From Candidatus Caldarchaeales archaeon (GTDB lineage: Archaea; Thermoproteota; Nitrososphaeria_A; Caldarchaeales; Calditenuaceae), in the NCBI GenBank assembly GCA_039630085.1, contig JBCNVM010000004.1:1-64000 (forward strand): 64,000 bases of DNA, given 5' to 3'. Position numbers and translations under genes: made by a program. Within the stretch, counting starts at the first letter, position 1, and each line of letters starts with the position of its first letter. Below, in pieces: positions 20,032 through 29,061 of the stretch. Under the pieces are notes generated by a model. The model saw nothing but the letters and a program-made list of their open reading frames with translations, was not told the origin of the DNA and did no database searches.

Positions 20032-20390
20032 AGGAGCGGGAGCGAACCGGTCACCCTGTCGATCAGCTCCGAGGGCGCGGGCCCAAGCCCGAGGGCCGTC
20101 GTGGTCCCGGGCTCGAGCTCCGTGAGCCCCGCGTCCTCGATAAGGGCCGCGGGTATCCCCAGCGCCTCCGCCTTCCGCTTCAGGCCCAGCAGATCATCGA
20201 GGCTCCCGACCTTCAGGACGACCTTCTTCTGGCCGGACGCGAGCCACCTCTCCGCCCACTCCGGCCTCGACCTCCTCGCCTCCAGGAACGCTGATACCGC
20301 GGCGTGCCCCGCTTGGGCCGCGAGCTTACCGACGCTCATCCTGATGTCAGTCCGGATGACGATCGCTTGCTTCAGCTCGCTCAAGGCCAA
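20028..20390 (-). CDS. pth: Peptidyl-tRNA hydrolase Pth2
   Basis: [27 protein letters not shown]. Confidence 0.95.
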
Positions 20391-21271
20391 GACCTCCCGC
20401 TCCCGAGGCTCGCGGGCCTGTTGTTCAGCCCGACCACCATCACCTCGCCGTAATCCGAGAGGGCGTCGGAGACGGCGTCGGAGTCCGACCTGCTGACCAG
20501 TGCGGCCATCGCGGGTCCGGTCCCCGAGATCGAGCAGGAGCGCGCCCCTCGCCTCATCGCCTCCGCGAGGAACTCGGCGCCGTATCCGAGGGCCGCCGAC
20601 ATCGCGAGTCCGTTGACGGTCATGGCCCCGAAGAGGTCGCCGCGCAGGGCTAGGTCGAAGGCCGCATCGAACGCGGGCCTAAACGGGTCGAGGATCTCGC
20701 GTCTGAACTCGGAGGTGTAGGTCCTCCTGCCCTTCGGGACCGAGACGACCGCCACGATGTCGCCACCGACCCCCTCCCTCCTGAGGAGCGCCTTGGCCGC
20801 GTTGTCGGTCACCACGAACCCTCCCATGAAGCAGGCCGCCGCGTCGTCGGCAGCGCCGGTCACCGACGTCCCCGACCTCAGCGATGCCTCCGCGATCAGC
20901 CTCAGGGCCTCTTCGGGAGCGGGCAGCACCCCCAACGCGTCGAAGAGCGCGAACGCGACCGCCGAGGCCGCGGCGCTCGAGCTCTTCAGCCCCACCGCTA
21001 CCGGGACCTCTGAGATTACATCGACCTCACAGCCTACCCCCCTCGTCCCCGCCCAGTCCAGAACCACTTCGACCGTAGCCCTGACGACCCTGTCGTCCCC
21101 GACCCGACCCACGTCCAGGAACCTCACCCCCGACTCGCCCTCAATCAGCCTAACCCGTGCCCGCGTCCTCAGCCCGATCCCGAGCGCCGCTCCCCTCCCG
21201 GTCGGTATCGCGTTGACCACCGTCACCGCCCCTCCCACGACCGCCTCGCCTTCAAGCACCATTTCCGGCAT
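20381..21271 (-). CDS. aroK: Archaeal shikimate kinase (GHMP family)
   Basis: [25 protein letters not shown]; start at ATG 21271 or 21262, not 21535. Confidence 0.9.
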
Positions 21272-21327
21272 GCTCCCGGGGACCTTCAGGGCTTTATGGT
21301 TCAAGAGCACCATCGGTCCACCACACG

Positions 21328-21335
21328 TTTTTATC
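21328..21335 (+). promoter_or_regulatory. TATA-like box of the asd-aro operon
   Basis: TTTTTATC. The same TTTATC core lies 28-31 nt before the start codons of priS, MFS, eif2b, leuC and the spermidine synthase, so TSS is inferred at about 21359. Confidence 0.65.
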
Positions 21336-21358
21336 GTGGTCGTTTCGCGGTGGTGCGA

Positions 21359-21494
21359 GCGGAGGGGGTAGGTGTGGTCCTGAGCTCGGTGAACGCGTTC
21401 TGGTTCACGACCTACCCCTACTTCTACTTCGGGAACTGAGGATGAAGGAACCCACGCCCGCCCCCTCCGCCTCCGTCTCCGGGGTGATCCGTGT
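21359..21494 (+). promoter_or_regulatory. Candidate translational attenuator leader of the aromatic amino acid operon
   Basis: Perfect complements 21365-21373/21410-21418 and 21359-21368/21461-21470 share one strand; 21459-21464 can pair with the asd SD at 21481-21486. Confidence 0.65.
21374..21439 (+). CDS. Phe/Tyr/Trp-rich leader peptide (MVLSSVNAFWFTTYPYFYFGN)
   Basis: GGAGGGGG SD 5 nt before GTG; 4 Phe, 3 Tyr and 1 Trp codons clustered; directly upstream of the chorismate operon. Confidence 0.75.
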   Translation: MVLSSVNAFWFTTYPYFYFGN

Positions 21495-22547
21495 TTGGCT
21501 AGGTTGAAGGTGGGAGTTCTGGGAGCGACGGGCATGGTCGGGCAGATCTACCTGAGGATGCTGGACAGGCACCCGTGGTTCGAAGTCTCCTCGGTCTCAG
21601 GAAACACCACGGTCGGGAAGAGTCTGGCAGAGGCCTATGGCGGGAAGGGCGAGGTGCCCGAGCGGCTAAGAGACCTCGAGGTGCTGCCCTCCGACCCGAG
21701 GAAGTTCGACGTCGACTTCGTCTTCAGCTGTCTCCCGACAGAGGCGGCGAGGTCCGTCGAGCCGGAGTTCGCGAGGGCCGGCTTCCCGGTCTTCTCCGAC
21801 GCCTCGGCCCACAGGTATCAGGAGGACGTGCCCCTGATGGTCCCCGAGGTCAACCCCGACCACCTCGACCTGATCGAGGTCCAGCGGAGGAGAAGGGGAT
21901 GGGACGGCTTCATCGTGACGACGCCCAACTGCACGACCCTGACCTTCGTCCTCCCCCTTAAGCCGCTGGTCGACGCGTTCGGCGTGAAGCACGTGGACGT
22001 CGTGACGATGCAGTCCGTCTCGGGGGCCGGTTACAACGGCGTACCCTCGATGGCGATCCTCGGGAACATAATCCCTTACATCAAAGGAGAGGAGGAGAAG
22101 GTCTCGTCGGAGCCCAAGAAGATACTCGGGAGGCTCTCGGACGGGAGGATCGAGCCCGCGAGGTTCGAGGTCGACGCCACCTGCACGCGGGTCCCGACGC
22201 TGGTCGGCCACCTCGCCTCCGTCTCGGTCGAGCTCGAGAGGGACTTCAGGTTCGAGGAGGTGGTCGAGGCGCTGAGCTCGTTCGAGGGCCTCCCGCAGAG
22301 GTTGGAGCTCCCGACGGCTCCCCGCAGGCCGATTGTGGTGGCGAGCGAGCCCGACAGGCCCCAGCCGAGGCTCGACGCGGAGGCGGGCGACGTCAGAGGC
22401 ATGCCGGTCTTCGTCGGAAGGATGAGGAGAGGTGCGAGGGAGAGAACGGTCAGGTTCGTCTCGCTGAGCAACAACCTCGTCAGGGGAGCCGCGGGTATCG
22501 CGATCCTCACGGCGGAGCTCGCCCACGCGACGGGGAGGCTGAGGTGA
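21495..22547 (+). CDS. asd: Aspartate-semialdehyde dehydrogenase (archaeal type)
   Basis: GATGMVG, VPEVN, PNCTT, QSVSGAG, CTRVP, NLVRGAAG; TTG start with GGGGTGA SD. Confidence 0.95.
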   Translation: MARLKVGVLGATGMVGQIYLRMLDRHPWFEVSSVSGNTTVGKSLAEAYGGKGEVPERLRDLEVLPSDPRKFDVDFVFSCLPTEAARSVEPEFARAGFPVFSDASAHRYQEDVPLMVPEVNPDHLDLIEVQRRRRGWDGFIVTTPNCTTLTFVLPLKPLVDAFGVKHVDVVTMQSVSGAGYNGVPSMAILGNIIPYIKGEEEKVSSEPKKILGRLSDGRIEPARFEVDATCTRVPTLVGHLASVSVELERDFRFEEVVEALSSFEGLPQRLELPTAPRRPIVVASEPDRPQPRLDAEAGDVRGMPVFVGRMRRGARERTVRFVSLSNNLVRGAAGIAILTAELAHATGRLR

Positions 22548-22548
22548 A

Positions 22549-23334
22549 GTGGTCTCCGGGAAGCAGGTCAGGCTCTCGAGGATCACCGAGTCCGGGAGGA
22601 TGCTCTGCGTGCCGATGGACCACGCGGTCTCGACGGGACCGGTGAAGGGCCTCGACAGGATCTACTCGACGATCGAGGAGGTCGAGCTGGGAGGAGCGAC
22701 CGCGGTCCTAACCCACAAGGGGATCCTGAAGCACATGCCGAGGCCCCCGAGGGTCGGTTACATCGTCCACCTCTCAGGGAGCACCTCCTTAGGCCCCGAC
22801 CCGAACTGGAAGGTCCTCGTAGGGGAGGTCGTGAACGCGATCAGGCTGGGAGCGGACGCGGTCTCCGTGCACGTCAACGTCGGCAGCAGGGCTGAGCCCC
22901 ACATGCTCGAGAAGCTCGGGAGGGTCGCGGACGAGTGCGAAGGATACGGGATCCCGTTGATCGCGATGATGTACCCGAGGGGAGAGAACGTCAAGGACCC
23001 AAACGACCCGAGGGTCCTCGCCCACGTCGCGAGGGTCGGTGCCGAGCTGGGCGCGGACGTCGTGAAGGTTCCCTACACTGGCTCTCCAGAGACCTTCAGA
23101 GAGGTGGTCGAGTCGTGCCCGGCCCCCCTAGTGATGGCGGGAGGCCCGAAGTCCGGGAGCGAGTTGGACGTCCTTGAGATGGCCTACGGCGCGATGAAGG
23201 CCGGCGCGATGGGGGTCACGATAGGCAGGAACGTCTTCATGCACGACAGGCCGAGGTCGGTCGTCGCGGCCCTCCGGAGGATCGTGATCGAGGGCAGGAC
23301 CGTCGAGGAGGCGCTCAGGGTTGTCCGGGGGTAG
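22549..23334 (+). CDS. aroA': 2-amino-3,7-dideoxy-D-threo-hept-6-ulosonate synthase (class I aldolase family)
   Basis: PMDH, THKG, HLSGST, MMYPRG, GADVVK, AGGPK; sits between asd and DHQ synthase II. Confidence 0.88.
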   Translation: MVSGKQVRLSRITESGRMLCVPMDHAVSTGPVKGLDRIYSTIEEVELGGATAVLTHKGILKHMPRPPRVGYIVHLSGSTSLGPDPNWKVLVGEVVNAIRLGADAVSVHVNVGSRAEPHMLEKLGRVADECEGYGIPLIAMMYPRGENVKDPNDPRVLAHVARVGAELGADVVKVPYTGSPETFREVVESCPAPLVMAGGPKSGSELDVLEMAYGAMKAGAMGVTIGRNVFMHDRPRSVVAALRRIVIEGRTVEEALRVVRG

Positions 23335-24310
23335 GACGAAGGAGCTGGTGGTCGAGGCCGGGTCGGAGCTCGAGGCGAGGGAGGCGCTCGAGCTGGGCGC
23401 CGACGCGGTCCTCCTCCTTGACGCGAGCTCACGGGGAATCGAAGCTAGGTCGTACGTCCCTGGAAGGAACCTGAGGGTCGCCAGGATCAGGGACCAGTCG
23501 GACGTCGAGGAGCTGAGGTCGCTTGAGGGTTCGGGCCTCGAGGCAGTCCTTGTAGAGCCAGAAGACCTCAAGGTGATCGCGCTGGAGAACGTCATCGCGG
23601 CCCTGCAGGGCTCCGGATTAAAGGTCCTCGCGAGGGCGAGGTCGCTCCAGGAGGTCGAGCTGGTTGCGGGGGCGCTGGAGTCGGGCGTCGACGGCGTCGT
23701 TGTCGGGATGGAGCTGCTCAAAGAACTCAGGGTGATCAGGGACCTCCTCTCAACCCCGCAGAGGCTCGAGCTGAAGGAGGCCGAGGTCAGGGAGGTCGTC
23801 GGGCTAGGACTCGGCGAGAGGGCCTGCGTCGACACGACCTCGATCCTCAGAGTCGGCGAGGGGATGCTCGTCGGGAACATGTCACGGATGCTCTTCCTCG
23901 TCCACAGCGAGTCCGTCGGGAGCAGGCTCACCCCGCCAAGGCCCTTCAGGGTCAACGCGGGCTCAGTCCACTGCTACGTCCTTGCCCCCGGCGGGAGGAC
24001 AAACTACCTCTCGGAGCTGAGGTCGGGGAGCAGGGTCCTCGCGGTCTCGAGGGACGGCAGGTGCAGGGTCGTCTCGGTGGGAAGGGTGAAGGTGGAGAGG
24101 AGGCCGCTCGCGAACGTCGTCGCCGAGGTCGACGGGCTGACCGGCTCGGTGGCGCTCCAGGCCGCTGAGACCATCAGGCTCGTCTCGCCCGACGGCGAGC
24201 TCCTCGACGTGACCTCGGTCTCGGGAGGAGACCGGGTTCTGGTCTGGACCTCCGGCGCTGCCGCCCGGCACATGGGACTGGCGGTCGACGAGTTCATCGA
24301 GGAGGTCTGA
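23321..24310 (+). CDS. aroB': 3-dehydroquinate synthase II
   Basis: RACVDT, GEGMLVG, RPFRVNAG, YLSEL, QAAETIRL, RHMG. Confidence 0.92.
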   Translation: MSGGRTKELVVEAGSELEAREALELGADAVLLLDASSRGIEARSYVPGRNLRVARIRDQSDVEELRSLEGSGLEAVLVEPEDLKVIALENVIAALQGSGLKVLARARSLQEVELVAGALESGVDGVVVGMELLKELRVIRDLLSTPQRLELKEAEVREVVGLGLGERACVDTTSILRVGEGMLVGNMSRMLFLVHSESVGSRLTPPRPFRVNAGSVHCYVLAPGGRTNYLSELRSGSRVLAVSRDGRCRVVSVGRVKVERRPLANVVAEVDGLTGSVALQAAETIRLVSPDGELLDVTSVSGGDRVLVWTSGAAARHMGLAVDEFIEEV

Positions 24311-24312
24311 AC

Positions 24313-25035
24313 TTGGGGCCCTTCAGGGTCTGCGCGAGCCTCATGTCCGAGACCGTCGAGGGCTTCGAGGTCCTTGCGAGGGAAGCGCTGGACGAAGGCG
24401 CCGACCTGATCGAGCTCAGGCTCGACGCGCTCACAACACCTGACCTCGCCGCGTCCGCCGTGAGGGGAGCGAAGGACCTTGGGGCTACCGTGATCGCCAC
24501 CGTCAGGTCGAGAGAGGAAGGCGGTCGCTACAGCGCGGGGCCGAAGAAGCTCGTCGAGGTCTTGAAGGCGGTCTCCGGGCACGCCGACCTCGTGGACTTG
24601 GACAGGGCCTCGCTCGAGCTCCGCGAGGTCAGGTCGCTCGCGTCCGAGCTGGGGGAGGACAGGGTGCTCGCGTCTGCGCACCTCGGGCCCGGAGATCCGG
24701 GCGTCCAGGAACTCGTCCAAGTCGCGGAGGCGCTCAGTTCCTACGGTTACCTCGTGAAGCTGGTCACCTCGCCGGTCACAGCCGCCGGGGCCGCTTCAAC
24801 TCTCGGCCTTTTCAGGGAGGTCGGGTGGTCGAGGGGGAGGCTCGTCGCATTCTCGGTCGGCGAGAGGTGGAGCCTGACCAGACCGCTCTCGCTCGTCCTC
24901 GGCGCGCCCTTCACCTACGCGGCTCTGAAGGGGAGGGAGGTGGCGCCCGGACAGCTAAGCGTACGGGAGACGAAGCTCCTCGCGGAGATCTTCAGCAGGG
25001 TGATGGCCCTTGCCCCTGCTCGGGCTGATCGGTGA
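24313..25035 (+). CDS. aroD: Type I 3-dehydroquinate dehydratase
   Basis: IELRLD, TVRSREEGG, VKLV, APGQ. Confidence 0.85.
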   Translation: MGPFRVCASLMSETVEGFEVLAREALDEGADLIELRLDALTTPDLAASAVRGAKDLGATVIATVRSREEGGRYSAGPKKLVEVLKAVSGHADLVDLDRASLELREVRSLASELGEDRVLASAHLGPGDPGVQELVQVAEALSSYGYLVKLVTSPVTAAGAASTLGLFREVGWSRGRLVAFSVGERWSLTRPLSLVLGAPFTYAALKGREVAPGQLSVRETKLLAEIFSRVMALAPARADR

Positions 25036-25864
25036 CCCGGTCTCGCACTCGATATCGCCGCTGATCCACACGCTGACCGCTAGGTCGCTGGGGCTCGACC
25101 TCAGTTACGTTACGGTTCACGTCAGGTCACCAGGCGCGGTCGGGCCGGTGATGAGGGCCCTTCACGACCTAGGCTTCGCGGGGCTGAACGTGACGATCCC
25201 CCATAAGGAGGAGGCGGCGAGGCACGCGGTCAGGCTGACCGGGGACTCGGCGCTGATCGGGGCCGTTAACGCCCTCAGGAGGTCGGACGGCGGCTGGGAG
25301 GGTCACAACACCGACTACGTTGCGATCAGGGACGCAGTCGCAGAGAGACGGGTCGGGAGCGGGTTCGAAGCCCTCGTCTTGGGGGCCGGGGGATCTGCGA
25401 GGGCCGCGGTCGCAGCTCTGGTTGCGCTCGGGGCCGGGTCAGTCGCGGTCGCGAACAGGACGCTCGCTAGGGCCCAGGAGTTGGTCGAGAGGCTCGGAGC
25501 TTTCGGCGGGTCGAGGCTCGCGGCGCTGCCGCTCGAGAGGGCCCGTGAAGCCGCGAGGAGGTCGGACGTCGTCGTCAACACGATACCCGTGGGCCTAATT
25601 GGCGGCGCTGAGCTCCCGATCGAGCCCGAGGACCTCAGGGAGGGCGCGCTGCTCGTCGACCTCGTCTACGGGCCTGAGGGCTCACCGACGGCCCGTCTGG
25701 CCTCAGCGAGGGGTCTCGAGCTGGTCGACGGTGTGGAGGTGCTCGCGAGGCAGGCGGCAGCGTCCTTCAGGCTATGGACGGGGATAGAGGTCGGGTACAA
25801 ATCGATGGAGGCGATCGGGAGGTTCGCGCTGAGGAGGTCGGTCGGATGGGAGCGGTCGCGCTGA
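25010..25864 (+). CDS. aroE: Shikimate dehydrogenase
   Basis: HSISPLIH, NVTIPHK, GAVN, HNTD, GAGGSARA. Confidence 0.93.
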   Translation: MPLLGLIGDPVSHSISPLIHTLTARSLGLDLSYVTVHVRSPGAVGPVMRALHDLGFAGLNVTIPHKEEAARHAVRLTGDSALIGAVNALRRSDGGWEGHNTDYVAIRDAVAERRVGSGFEALVLGAGGSARAAVAALVALGAGSVAVANRTLARAQELVERLGAFGGSRLAALPLERAREAARRSDVVVNTIPVGLIGGAELPIEPEDLREGALLVDLVYGPEGSPTARLASARGLELVDGVEVLARQAAASFRLWTGIEVGYKSMEAIGRFALRRSVGWERSR

Positions 25865-27126
25865 GGCCGAAGCGGAGCATCGGAGGGGAGGTCAGGGCTC
25901 CCCCCTCCAAGAGCTACACCCACAGGGCGGTCTTCCTGGCCTCGCTCGCTGAGGGCGAGAGCGTCGTCTACAACCCGCTAATCTCGAGGGACACGAGGGC
26001 GACAATCGAGGCCGTGAGGACGTTCGGCGCCGACGTTGAGCTCCTAGGGGATGCAGTTGTCATCGAGGGAGGCTGGCCCAGAGTCCCCCAGGACGTGATC
26101 GACGCGATGAACTCCGGGACGACGCTGCGGATCGCGACGGCAGTGGCGGCCCTTGTTCACGGAGGCTATTCGGTCCTCACAGGAGACGAGAGCCTGAGGA
26201 AGAGGCCTATGCAGCCGCTCTTGGACGCGCTGAACCAGCTCGGCGTCGAGGCCTGGTCGACGAGGGGGAACGGCCGCGCTCCGGTGGTCGTGAAGGGGAA
26301 GGGGACGCTGGGAGGTCGGTGCAGCCTCAGGGGCGACGTCAGCAGCCAGTTCGTCTCGGCGCTGGCGATCGCGGGCTCCGCGTGCGAGGAGGTGACTGAA
26401 GTCGATGTCGTCGGGGAGCTGGTCTCGAGGCCCTACGTCGCGGCGACGCTCGAGACCATCAGAGCCTTCGGGGGCGGGGCCGAGTTCGACGGCGAGCGGC
26501 TGGTGGCCGGCGGTCGCACGATAAGGCGGAGCAGGTTCACCGTCCCCGGCGACTACGGACTTGCAGCGTTCGTGCTGGTGCTGCCTGTCCTCCTCGGCGG
26601 TTACGTTAGAGTCACGGGTCTGGACCCTGCTCTGCCTCAAGCCGACTCCGCGATCGTGGAGATACTGGAGGCCATGGGCGCGAGCGTGAGGCGGGGCGAG
26701 GACTACGTGGAGACTATGGGGTCGACCCTCGAGGGCATCGAGGTTGACCTCAGGGACTCGCCGGACCTCCTCCCGGTCGTCGCGGTGCTGGGCTTCTTCG
26801 CCGACGGGAGGACCGTCGTGAGGGGCGTGAGGCACGCGAGGTTCAAGGAGAGCGACAGGGTCTCGGTCCTCGCGGCCGAGCTGGCGAGGGCGGGCGCGGT
26901 CGTCCAGGAGTTCGAGGACGGGCTCTCGGTCTCGCCAGGGACCGTGAACGATGTCGTCCTCGACCCGCGCGAAGACCACAGACTCTTCATGGCGTTCGCC
27001 GTCCTCTCCGCGGCCACGCACGGAAGGGTGAAGACGCTCGGGGTCGGCTCCGTCGACGTCTCCTACCCCGACTTCCTGAAGGACGTCTCAGGCATCGGGC
27101 TCGAGGTGGTGGAGGTTGGCCGGTAA
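25846..27126 (+). CDS. aroA: EPSP synthase
   Basis: PPSKSYTHR, NSGTTLR, SSQFVS, KESDR, DHR; ATG 25846 follows GAGGAGG. Confidence 0.95.
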   Translation: MGAVALRPKRSIGGEVRAPPSKSYTHRAVFLASLAEGESVVYNPLISRDTRATIEAVRTFGADVELLGDAVVIEGGWPRVPQDVIDAMNSGTTLRIATAVAALVHGGYSVLTGDESLRKRPMQPLLDALNQLGVEAWSTRGNGRAPVVVKGKGTLGGRCSLRGDVSSQFVSALAIAGSACEEVTEVDVVGELVSRPYVAATLETIRAFGGGAEFDGERLVAGGRTIRRSRFTVPGDYGLAAFVLVLPVLLGGYVRVTGLDPALPQADSAIVEILEAMGASVRRGEDYVETMGSTLEGIEVDLRDSPDLLPVVAVLGFFADGRTVVRGVRHARFKESDRVSVLAAELARAGAVVQEFEDGLSVSPGTVNDVVLDPREDHRLFMAFAVLSAATHGRVKTLGVGSVDVSYPDFLKDVSGIGLEVVEVGR

Positions 27127-28261
27127 CTCGATCGGCGAGAGGTTCGTGGTGACCAGCTTCGGCGAGAGCCACGGCAGATGCGTGGGCGTCGTGATCGACG
27201 GCTGCCCCGCCGGACTTCCCCTCTCGGGGGAGGACGTCCAGCCCCTTCTTGACCTGAGGAGACCGGGTCAGTCGCTCGTCGCGAGCCAACGGAGGGAGGA
27301 GGACAGGGTCGAGATCCTCAGCGGTGTCTTCAACGGCTTCACCACCGGGGCTCCGATCGCGATGGTCGTCTGGAACAGGGACGTCGACTCGAGGAGCTAC
27401 GAGAGATTGCTCGAGACACCGAGGCCCGGGCACGCCGACTACTTCGCGAGGGTCAAGTACGGCGGGTTCAACGACTGGCGCGGAGGCGGGAGGTTCTCTG
27501 GAAGGATAACCGCGGGGTTCGTGATGGCGGGCGCGGTCGCGATGAAGCTCCTGAAGGTGACTCTGGGCGTCGAGGTGCTCGCCTACGTGAAGAGGATCGA
27601 CGGCGTCGAGGCCAGTGAGCTCGCCGTTGACGCGATCAGGGCCAAGAGGTACTCCAACGACGTCAGGTGCCCCGACGAGGAGGCCGCAGAGCGGATGAGG
27701 CAGGTCGTGTTGGAGGCTAGGAGGTCCGGGGACAGCGTAGGCAGCCTCGTGGAGTGCCTAGCCCTCAACGTGCCCTTGGGCCTCGGCGAGCCGGTCTTCT
27801 CGTCCCTCGACTCGGACCTCGCGAGGGCCCTCTTCTCGGTACCGGCGGTCAAGGGCGTCGAGTTCGGCGCGGGCTTCGGCGTGGTGGGCTCTAGGGGCTC
27901 CCTGAACAACGACCCCCTCGGGTTCGTCGACGGCAGGGTGACATCGCTGACCAACAACGCGGGCGGTATTGTCGGAGGGCTCTCGACTGGCAGGGAGATC
28001 GTGGTGAGGGTCGCGTTTAAGCCGCCTGCCTCGATCGCGCTCCCCCAGCGCACCCTGAACCTCCGAACGATGTCCCAGGAGGAGGTCGTGGTAACGGGGA
28101 GGCACGACCCGGTGATAGGGCCGAGGGCCGTCCCGGTCGTCGAGTCTGTGGTAGCGATAGTCTTGGCTGACCACGCGATCAGGGCGGGCTTAGTGCCTCC
28201 CGTGCTGAGGACGGGTAAAGACGAGGCTCTCGGTAGCAGTGGTGAGGTGACGCGGGCGTGA
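27116..28261 (+). CDS. aroC: Chorismate synthase
   Basis: FGESHG, PRPGHAD, GGGRFSGR, NNAGGIVGG, GRHDP. Confidence 0.96.
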   Translation: MAGNSIGERFVVTSFGESHGRCVGVVIDGCPAGLPLSGEDVQPLLDLRRPGQSLVASQRREEDRVEILSGVFNGFTTGAPIAMVVWNRDVDSRSYERLLETPRPGHADYFARVKYGGFNDWRGGGRFSGRITAGFVMAGAVAMKLLKVTLGVEVLAYVKRIDGVEASELAVDAIRAKRYSNDVRCPDEEAAERMRQVVLEARRSGDSVGSLVECLALNVPLGLGEPVFSSLDSDLARALFSVPAVKGVEFGAGFGVVGSRGSLNNDPLGFVDGRVTSLTNNAGGIVGGLSTGREIVVRVAFKPPASIALPQRTLNLRTMSQEEVVVTGRHDPVIGPRAVPVVESVVAIVLADHAIRAGLVPPVLRTGKDEALGSSGEVTRA

Positions 28262-29061
28262 AGGTCGTCGTGAAGGCGGGCGGAAGGGCGCTCCTCGGGA
28301 ACCTCGCGGGGATCGCGGAGAGCATCGCGAGGCGCTCCGGCCCGCACCGGATCGTCTTCGTCCACGGGGGCGGAGACGTGGTCAGCGAGTACTCCAAGCG
28401 GATGGGGATCGAGCCGAAGTTCGTGACTTCGCCGCAGGGTATCAGGAGCAGGTACACGGACCTCCAGGAGCTCGAGGTCTACGTCATGGTGATGGCGGGG
28501 AAGCTGAACAAGGAGATCGTCGCGGCCCTTAGAAGGCTCGGCGTGCGGGCGGTGGGGATCTCCGGGGCCGACGGCGGCCTGCTCACCGCCGAGAGGAAGA
28601 AGAGGATCGTCGTTGTCGACGAGCGGGGGAGGAAGCGGGTCATCGAGGGCGGGTACACTGGGATGATCACCTCGGTCTCGCCCCAGCTCCTCGAGCTCCT
28701 CACGTCGAGCGGGTTCACGGTCGTGGTCGCGCCGATCGCCGTCAGCGAGGACGGGGAGCTCCTGAACGTCGACGGAGACCAGGCAGCTGCCTCGATCGCG
28801 AAGGCGACCTCGGCGGACGCCCTCGTGCTGCTCAGCGACGTGGAAGGAGTCCTCGTGGAGGGAGAAGTCGTCGGGAGGCTGACGCCTCAGGAGGCGGTCG
28901 AGCTGTCGCAGCGGATCGGCCCTGGGATGAACCGGAAGCTTATGCTGGCCGGCGAGGCCGTCTCCTCCGGCGTCAAGTTGGCCATAATCTCCAACGGGCT
29001 CGCGGAGGACCCGCTCAAGGTCCTAGAGGAGCCGAGGGGGACGGTGGTAGCGCCGCCGTAA
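28258..29061 (+). CDS. lysZ: [LysW]-aminoadipate/glutamate kinase
   Basis: VHGGG, SPQGIRSRYTD, GGYTG, NVDGD, GMNRKL. Confidence 0.88.
   Translation: MKVVVKAGGRALLGNLAGIAESIARRSGPHRIVFVHGGGDVVSEYSKRMGIEPKFVTSPQGIRSRYTDLQELEVYVMVMAGKLNKEIVAALRRLGVRAVGISGADGGLLTAERKKRIVVVDERGRKRVIEGGYTGMITSVSPQLLELLTSSGFTVVVAPIAVSEDGELLNVDGDQAAASIAKATSADALVLLSDVEGVLVEGEVVGRLTPQEAVELSQRIGPGMNRKLMLAGEAVSSGVKLAIISNGLAEDPLKVLEEPRGTVVAPP

Follow-up and report, generated by a model that had tools for sequence, protein, structure and literature searches.

Leader-peptide attenuation is a textbook bacterial mechanism. In the trpL, pheL and hisL systems, a short leader open reading frame (ORF) at the 5′ end of the operon carries codons for the end products, is accompanied by alternative RNA helices, and occurs in one copy per operon. 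The locus described here appears to share these features. It lies in a 64,000-nucleotide stretch (hereafter the window; positions 1 to 64,000 of contig JBCNVM010000004.1, assembly GCA_039630085.1) from a Candidatus Caldarchaeales archaeon, where a 21-codon ORF rich in Phe, Trp and Tyr codons precedes the asd-aro operon of chorismate synthesis. An earlier note, made from the sequence alone, had proposed that this ORF mediates ribosome-dependent attenuation and integrates the supply of all three aromatic amino acids. We consider the locus to be a strong candidate for ribosome-sensed attenuation in Archaea, because an upstream ORF (uORF) packed with Tyr and Phe codons, within a folded RNA, precedes the aromatic operon here and in many related families.

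The likeness to trpL, pheL and hisL extends to a hairpin and U run directly after the leader in one related family (f21) and in one genome of another (G209 of f31). The differences are that the present leaders are archaeal, that several families appear to use sequestration of a Shine-Dalgarno (SD) sequence, that the regulatory codons pair with a strand 5′ of them which holds the leader's own ribosome-binding site (RBS), so that the order of strands is permuted relative to the 1-2-3-4 order, and that the window is without a U-tract terminator. Hairpins are not known to be required for termination in Archaea.

A second point of comparison is tnaC, in which the regulatory residues are also near the stop codon and a stalled ribosome would likewise cover an adjacent RNA signal. 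In contrast to the leaders described here, TnaC senses free Trp and induces the catabolic tna operon through Rho. To our knowledge, Archaea are without Rho.

A bacterial precedent from the same pathway is the AroR leader (Phe-Tyr-Phe), which precedes aroF in Corynebacterium glutamicum (Neshat et al. 2014, described in PMC11802643). Both are mixed Phe/Tyr leaders that stand before the entry step of the shikimate pathway. AroR is terminator-based and controls DAHP synthase, whereas the operon in the window opens with genes that supply aspartate semialdehyde (ASA) to the aroA′/aroB′ route. In the ermCL/cat systems and in the mycobacterial leaderless poly-Cys uORFs (the latter from bioRxiv 10.1101/834739), masking of a downstream RBS depends on where the ribosome stands on a short uORF; these leaders differ in sensing antibiotics or cysteine. 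The leaderless mycobacterial uORFs also resemble the uORF of one genus in the window's family (g3), which appears to begin at a 5′-terminal AUG. Masking of a downstream SD of the ermCL/cat type is evident in one related genus (g6) and one related family (f4), while neither an equilibrium model nor the pairing of strands gave any in the window's own family.

A full-text literature search, in which subscription journals were largely outside the coverage, found no archaeal leader-peptide attenuator, in agreement with the earlier note, which knew of no well-characterised archaeal equivalent. In the accessible text of PMC7261190, uORFs in Haloferax are mentioned and attenuation is not, and the corresponding parts of PMC2965389 and PMC1262725 mention archaea in passing only.

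The leader ORF and its recurrence in related archaea

The leader ORF runs on the + strand from GTG at 21374 to TGA at 21439 and encodes 21 codons plus the stop (MVLSSVNAFWFTTYPYFYFGN); it was read from the sequence and the ORF listing. It is preceded by an SD sequence, GGAGGGGG, at 21361-21368 (+), and by a TATA-like box, TTTTTATC, at 21328-21335 (+); A/T-rich boxes with equal spacing are found in 17/18 loci of the window's family, the locus L004 being cut by a contig end. The TATA-to-start spacing usual in archaea would place the transcription start at about 21357-21359. The distance from the leader stop to the asd start is 55 nt. Within the ORF, positions 21398-21430 (+) encode F-W-F-T-T-Y-P-Y-F-Y-F, in which 8/11 residues are Phe, Trp or Tyr, and this cluster is the presumed stall site.

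To judge the cluster against its background, Phe, Trp and Tyr codons were counted in every stretch of 11 codons along the six frames of the whole genome (G000; 66 contigs, 1,412,510 bp, GC 64.4%), 2.82 million windows in total. The leader was the top-scoring window and the sole locus with 8/11 Phe, Trp or Tyr codons, and 7/11 was reached at five other loci. Since about 180 of the 2.82 million windows fall in the leader, the probability that the top window would lie before the aro operon by chance is of the order of 1e-4. A chance origin of the cluster is excluded in practice, because no other locus of the genome reaches 8/11. The box, the SD, the ORF and the aromatic codons of the earlier note were thus all found where it had placed them, and its view that a chance cluster is unlikely was borne out by the genome scan.

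The ORF is conserved throughout the family of the window (f1). Homologues of asd were present in 41/41 related genomes, with G000 counted, and a homologous aromatic ORF was found 110-190 nt 5′ of asd in 18/18 family loci, in which asd identity is 65-91%. The peptides end, for example, in FGFTAYTYFYFWEG, TWTTTYAYFFGPSI or GFATYAYFYAWIS directly before the stop. At three positions that are single-stranded in the consensus RNA fold described below (the junction positions), 54/54 codons in the 18 loci encode Tyr or Phe, with TAC, TAT, TTC and TTT as the only codons used; the Tyr two codons upstream of them is retained in 17/18 loci. Variation at the junction is confined to Tyr and Phe codons, L011 having Phe-Tyr in place of the Tyr-Phe of the other loci, and the junction length varies in frame-keeping steps. 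In L008, a +1 insertion gives rise to a Trp codon together with a new stop codon in frame.

A start and a nearby stop are retained in 18/18 family loci, with one usable start in every genus. L001-3 begin with GTG, and L004-6 have an ATG in that position, in each case behind an SD; by genus, the starts behind an SD are GTG or ATG in g1, GTG in g4 and ATG in g2. In genus g3, the ATG is at the extreme 5′ end of the conserved block, which is the predicted 5′ end, about 25 nt past the TATA box, and this position suggests that the g3 uORF is leaderless. A Trp codon is present in 13/18 family leaders. The proposal of the earlier note that one leader integrates Phe, Tyr and Trp supply is therefore weaker than a reading in terms of Tyr and Phe, for which the junction codons speak.

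A second ORF was observed in two of the three g4 loci. In L015 and L017, an ORF of 15-17 codons lies between helix P1 (see below) and asd, behind an SD (GAGGTG) directly after P1, and its TGA overlaps the asd ATG (ATGA); L016 has just a 4-codon ORF there. The overlap suggests translational coupling of the second ORF to asd in L015 and L017.

Related genomes were then searched for short ORFs rich in Phe, Tyr and Trp codons, as the earlier note had proposed. In the genome collection used, the class of the window is represented by its order alone, and the 5 kb upstream of aroB′ were taken for genomes with usable contigs. In f2, f3 and f4, the three other families of the order, asd is preceded by an aspartokinase gene (lysC), with AA_kinase and ACT domains in 5/5 tested. 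At a fixed place 5′ of lysC-asd-aroA′-aroB′ (a shorter operon in genus g15), a short ORF rich in Phe and Tyr, and in some cases Trp, was found in 28/42 other genomes of the order. In terms of 11-codon windows with at least 8/11 aromatic codons, 14 were on the operon strand, all at the leader position, compared to 1 on the opposite strand. The leaders recur within genera as recognisable peptides. Those of g9 (8/8 genomes) are of the type FF.FWSYYYFALA-stop, such as MELTKNACIVFFFSFWSYYYFALA; those of g15 (8/8) end as in LWSYWYFGFYYFALA; and g14 has leaders in 2/2 genomes. The g6 leaders (6/6) read VRDCLFLT.GYS[YW]YRYSE.DASL-stop, and those of g10 (2/2), which end in GFS.FTTFSYYYRW-stop, are recognisably related to the peptide of the window. 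Leaders were also present in 1/2 genomes of g11 and in the 1/1 genome of g12.

One candidate in genus g7, a frame reading WWIFYTDY, was rejected as a leader since it is without a start codon and inconsistent between species. Several of the g7 loci L155-L170 and L151 share a short A-rich stretch before the asd ATG (roughly AAAAAGTAAATAGCAGTAAAAAGCTGTTTTTAGAGC ATG), a possible sign that the operon is controlled in another way there.

The search was extended to the rest of the phylum, where aroB′ was found in 193/401 sampled genomes and 40 loci from 14 further families were taken. The genes lysC, asd and aroA′ were located by tblastn, and the 260 nt upstream of the first recognisable gene were scored with a threshold of at least 6/11; two loci gave no usable output (L210, with no gene matches, and L231, which is short). 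Windows at or above the threshold were found before 18/24 operons led by lysC or asd, the 24 being drawn from ten of the further families. These include 8/8 such operons in f14 (for example MASNTPEKESLTSRFFSFGYYFYYFN), 2/2 in f21 (ending, for example, in NPYYYYYYYCFF), 2/2 in f31, 1/1 each in f37, f56 and f25, 2/2 scored in f18 (its third locus being L210), and 1/2 in f12; additional peptides from the further families are MNSQSTSTMSTSWRFYSFGYFYYN and MVNKGKEKLLSSTAYFKELNTFNPYYYYYYYCFF. The threshold was reached in 0/4 operons of f6, with best windows of 4-5 of 11, in 0/1 of f41, and in 0/14 operons led by aroA′ (f5 11, f55 2, f53 1). Altogether, leaders were found in at least 11 families, with weaker candidates in one more. 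They carry up to 9 aromatic codons in 11, and the aromatic cluster lies 0-7 codons before the stop across families.

Two minor observations were made in these families. In f6 (L192-L195), a weaker frame rich in Arg, Tyr, Val and Phe (ending, for example, in RRYRVYFNYSCFNKVFRY) recurs 73-209 nt 5′ of lysC, at 73-94 nt in three of the four loci. In f5 (L216, L217, L220, L222 and L223), repetitive off-frame translations rich in Cys, Ser, Trp and Phe (CSWSFSWFWCWF and so on) lie about 4.2-4.7 kb 5′ of aroB′; these belong to a repeat-containing coding region that is unrelated to the aro genes and is a source of false aromatic matches. Among named relatives, the 400 nt upstream of asd held nothing convincing at those of 80 loci with at least 2,500 bases, and at the four named loci inspected closely asd was outside any aro operon. 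The named relatives in the contig search are not close, the best identity being 52-53% ('Nitrososphaerales/Nitrososphaerota archaeon').

RNA structure and proposed expression platforms

In the family loci, the leader ORF is located inside a structured RNA of about 125 nt with covariation. In the window, the 5′ strand of helix P1, GAGCGGAGGGGG at 21357-21368 (+), contains the leader SD, and its 3′ strand, CCCCCTCCGCCTC at 21461-21473 (+), is C-rich and anti-SD-like; CGGAGGGGG (21360-21368) is the exact reverse complement of CCCCCTCCG (21461-21469), and the helix is present in the minimum-free-energy folds. The 3′ strand begins 22 nt past the leader stop and 31 nt past the last aromatic codon. 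Helix P2 pairs the end of the SD and the start-codon region (21365-21379, +) with the T-T-Y-P-Y codons (21409-21421, +), as indicated by complementarity (GGGGTAGGT at 21365-21373 with ACCTACCCC at 21410-21418), folds and covariation. P3 is a small hairpin with the stop codon in or near the loop. The Tyr-Phe-Tyr/Phe codons are single-stranded between the helices in the consensus fold.

In the family alignment, both partners have changed in 7 of the 17 pairs of P1 and in 6 of the 11 pairs of P2. The P1 duplex (A:C) had a mean energy of -37.8 kcal/mol over the 18 loci (z = -2.6). In a model-guided alignment, which was fitted to the structure and therefore favours pairing, 81.4% of cells were paired compared to 45-51% with slid partners, and 17 pairs changed on both sides compared to 5-12 for slid partners; 0/500 shuffles reached the observed score. 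A three-way junction, with the nucleotides of highest conservation in the junction itself, is the minimum-free-energy fold in 15/18 family sequences. The three that belong to the same clade as the window favour a rod with an extended P1, and for the window sequence the three-way junction is 6.6-9 kcal/mol above the rod-like minimum. The single-sequence fold significance of the window leader (z = -0.81) is uninformative in RNA of this GC content.

A covariance model of this RNA (R1) found exactly one copy in 18/19 family genomes, always 5′ of asd, with scores of 58-122 bits on the forward strand and 19-23 bits on the reverse strand. It was absent only in G006, a genome that is 73% complete and is also without asd and aroB′. 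Beyond the family, R1 gave no meaningful match: 0/18 in f4, 0/4 in f2, and 2/35 in f3 at E about 0.75.

An RNA this well conserved might itself be the sensor. In such an explanation, a riboswitch-like or protein-binding structured RNA, in its junction or rod form, would respond directly to a metabolite or regulator, and the ORF would be incidental to it. The strong, covarying helices and the conserved junction would fit this explanation, as would the base pairing of the leader SD and start themselves, the openness of other reading frames, and the location of the Trp codon of the f3 leaders in a helix. However, R1 is confined to one family, whereas the aromatic ORF extends further with unrelated sequences and different helices. 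The junction variants are only Tyr or Phe codons, length steps at the junction keep the frame, and a start codon and nearby stop are kept in every group. A fold and covariation of the kind seen in riboswitches are present, yet the RNA is a single locus per genome, in one family, and always co-extensive with the aromatic ORF. A scan of 21200-21650 against Rfam 15, with E up to 10, gave only chance-level miRNA and snoRNA matches, the best at 21.1 bits (mir-935, gathering score 73, E = 1.4), and no T-box or riboswitch match. Since the aromatic ORF persists in families where this fold does not, we regard a pure riboswitch or protein-binding RNA as improbable.

The RNA that follows the leader differs from family to family. 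In 18/18 sequences of g9, g14 and g15, a GC hairpin carries the stop in its loop and takes its 5′ strand from the last codons (Ala-Leu-Ala-stop), and compensatory variants occur (GCCCUGGC/GCCAGGGC compared to GCCCUAGC/GCUAGGGC). In g6, g10, g11 and g12, a strand that coincides with the stop or follows it has two partners, the SD region of the leader itself and the aspartokinase SD, with z = -3.3 to -3.7 for the downstream pairing relative to shuffles. In g6 and f4, this strand consists of the last codons and the stop or lies directly 3′ of the stop, and its partner, GGAGGGAGG or GGGGGGUGG, contains the aspartokinase SD. The stop is immediately succeeded by a hairpin in f14, f21, f31 and f37 (z = -3.6 to -5.8); in f21 and in G209, UUUUU comes next and then the SD. 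In most families, the aromatic codons are placed so that a ribosome on them would reach a regulatory strand. Taken together, the predicted sensor is constant while the predicted platform varies across families, a situation that is familiar from bacterial attenuators and riboswitches.

These data also bear on the product of the ORF. If the ORF encoded a functional aromatic-rich micropeptide, for example a membrane- or enzyme-associated one that is merely co-expressed with the operon, then a conserved ORF with plausible starts and the recurrence of C-terminal motifs such as YFALA-stop or FYYFN-stop within families would be expected. Between families, however, sharing is limited to aromatic richness, and the N-termini are unrelated; the ALA-stop motif is accounted for by the hairpin with its compensatory changes, and the ORF is invariably located in the 5′ leader of a single type of operon. 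A micropeptide is therefore very unlikely, because only the aromatic richness is common across families. Least probable of all is a TnaC-type sensor of free amino acids, in which an abundance of aromatic amino acids would cause the nascent peptide to arrest the ribosome close to the stop or on it: the aromatic cluster shortly before the stop in all families and the stop that abuts or sits inside the regulatory hairpin would suit it, but it is disfavoured because such arrest would uncover the downstream SD in times of plenty, the wrong sign for a biosynthetic operon, and no arrest motif is conserved across families.

Proposed mechanism

We consider it likely that the 21-codon ORF is translated and that it serves the asd-aro mRNA as a regulatory leader, which would sense the supply of Tyr- and Phe-tRNA by ribosome stalling. 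In this model, the transcript would begin at about 21357, and its first 12 nt, which hold the leader SD, would pair with 21461-21473 (P1), while the start-codon region would pair with the Thr-Thr-Tyr codons (P2). A co-transcriptionally loaded ribosome would read the leader and, when Tyr- or Phe-tRNA is scarce, would stall on the C-terminal aromatic codons; in most relatives, scarce Trp-tRNA would also cause stalling. In the related families, the predicted stall site borders directly on a helix, at its 5′ strand, and this helix would either hide the SD of the first structural gene or form the hairpin with the U run. A stalled ribosome would keep this helix open, resulting in an operon that is ON, and a ribosome that terminates and departs would allow the helix to form.

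A different output step may operate in the window's own family, where the dominant helix pairs the leader's own SD with the C-rich strand 3′ of the stop. In a kinetic version of the model, a leading ribosome that has stalled, followed by a second one in the queue, would leave the 5′ strand free, so that P1 would lock the anti-SD-like strand and leave the asd RBS open (ON). Unimpeded and repeated translation of the leader would instead occupy the 5′ strand, and the C-rich strand would be free to mask the asd SD. The kinetic version is favoured on account of the strong P1, an asd-SD pairing that is not above shuffles, and an unchanged modelled RBS accessibility. It is a tentative suggestion at best, and one that we hold to be more probably wrong than right.

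Several results weigh against the proposed attenuation. In terms of output, there is no terminator-like U tract after the leader in the window; the pairing of the C-rich strand with the asd SD (C:D) is not above shuffles in the own family (z = +0.8); and in an equilibrium model with a ribosome on the aromatic codons, the accessibility of the asd RBS changed by at most 0.01 in 18/18 loci at 37 C. Equilibrium masking of the SD was thus rejected as the mechanism of the own family, since a modelled stalled ribosome leaves the asd RBS as accessible as before. In terms of the ORF, frames other than the leader frame are likewise long and open in the family loci, as is common in GC-rich DNA, and the g12 leader is without an ATG, GTG or TTG start. 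The aromatic codons are partly within conserved helices (P2 in f1, UUCUGGAGC in f3), and because of this overlap some of their nucleotide conservation is structural. In terms of distribution, the leader was found in 0/11 genomes of g7 and in 0/3 of g5, both of the same order. In the further families, windows with at least 7/11 numbered 26 on the operon strand compared to 19 on the control strand, a background of AT-rich genomes. Because such genomes give a background rich in Phe and Tyr codons, the argument rests on the fixed position and the recurring peptides and not on raw counts. Finally, no aromatic leader was found in the own genome before the trp operon (trpE start at G000:C23:8003) or pheA (G000:C6:14530).

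The claim of ribosome-mediated attenuation in the earlier note consequently divides in two. A leader acting as sensor through its aromatic codons is strongly supported by the comparative evidence, including the conservation of these codons in relatives, on which the note had made its claim depend. As far as can be judged from sequence, the output mechanism in the window does not appear to be of the classical trpL type, because there is no U tract, P1 is dominant and the asd RBS is unchanged.

The own genome and its relatives were also examined for leaders before other operons. Before trpE, at G000:C23:7834-8002, there is a TATA-like box with an SD and an ATG uORF of 26 codons (MAFEASTASSLRTPSRVPRTSRATLK); it was rejected as a trpL-like leader since it has no Trp codon. 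No Trp-rich uORF was found in the trpE upstream regions of three other leader-bearing genomes (G254, G135 and G209), and a genome scan for short ORFs with runs of a single amino acid (W, H, I, M, K, N, F, Y, C, Q or T) gave nothing leader-like.

With less confidence than for the leader itself, we lean towards the wider proposal that leader-peptide attenuation is old and widespread in this phylum. A leader of Phe and Tyr, and in some cases Trp, codons would govern aspartokinase-asd-aroA′-aroB′, and its platforms would be an SD sequestor, a hairpin with oligo-U, or the 5′-end/anti-SD lock of the window's family. If true, Archaea would have in these leaders a first class of amino-acid attenuators that act through sensing by ribosomes, and transcription-translation coupling would be put to direct regulatory use there. 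The locus and about 60 related leaders provide a concrete system that lends itself to tests. Such tests could reveal whether ribosomes in Archaea signal the supply of amino acids to gene expression in cis, how such signals interact with the archaeal RNA polymerase and with oligo-U or factor-dependent termination, and how a non-canonical aromatic pathway, which starts from aspartate semialdehyde and 6-deoxy-5-ketofructose phosphate, is regulated. The leaders also form a natural collection of variant sensors and platforms on which comparative and synthetic studies could draw.

Genes around the leader

The operon downstream of the leader spans 21495-28261 on the + strand. Its gene order, asd-aroA′-aroB′-aroD-aroE-aroA-aroC, is as the earlier note had given it; the identities were assigned by Pfam and, for asd and aroA′, also by NCBIfam. 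The first gene, asd (21495-22547; NCBIfam asd_EA above cut-off), has an SD, GGGGTGATCC, at 21481-21490 (+) and a TTG start at 21495-21497 (+) that was fixed by alignment to the ATG, GTG and TTG starts of the 18 loci. It is followed on the same strand by aroA′ (ADH synthase, 22549-23334; NCBIfam ADH_synth above cut-off), aroB′ (DHQ synthase II, 23321-24310), aroD (type I dehydroquinase, 24313-25035), aroE (shikimate dehydrogenase, 25010-25864), aroA (EPSP synthase, 25774-27126) and aroC (chorismate synthase, 27116-28261).

The leader ORF sits in an intergenic region of about 180 nt that asd shares with a divergent gene for an archaeal GHMP-type shikimate kinase (20381-21313, - strand; Pfam GHMP_kinases_N; NCBIfam TIGR01920, 222.6 bits with a cut-off of 126.85). 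The true start of the kinase may be 21313 or 21271. Its frame is open on the - strand as far as 21535 (20381-21535, 384 aa), and the leader frame is also open upstream to an ATG at 21296 (21296-21439, +, 47 aa). Each of these extensions runs into the promoter region and is probably unused.

At the other end of the operon, an AA_kinase gene (28258-29061, +) overlaps the end of the chorismate synthase gene. It was identified as a [LysW]-aminoadipate/glutamate kinase, and an assignment as aspartokinase was rejected, on the basis of its match to NF010662 (348.8 bits). Given this identity and the overlap, a gene of the lysine/arginine pathway may be co-transcribed with the aro operon.

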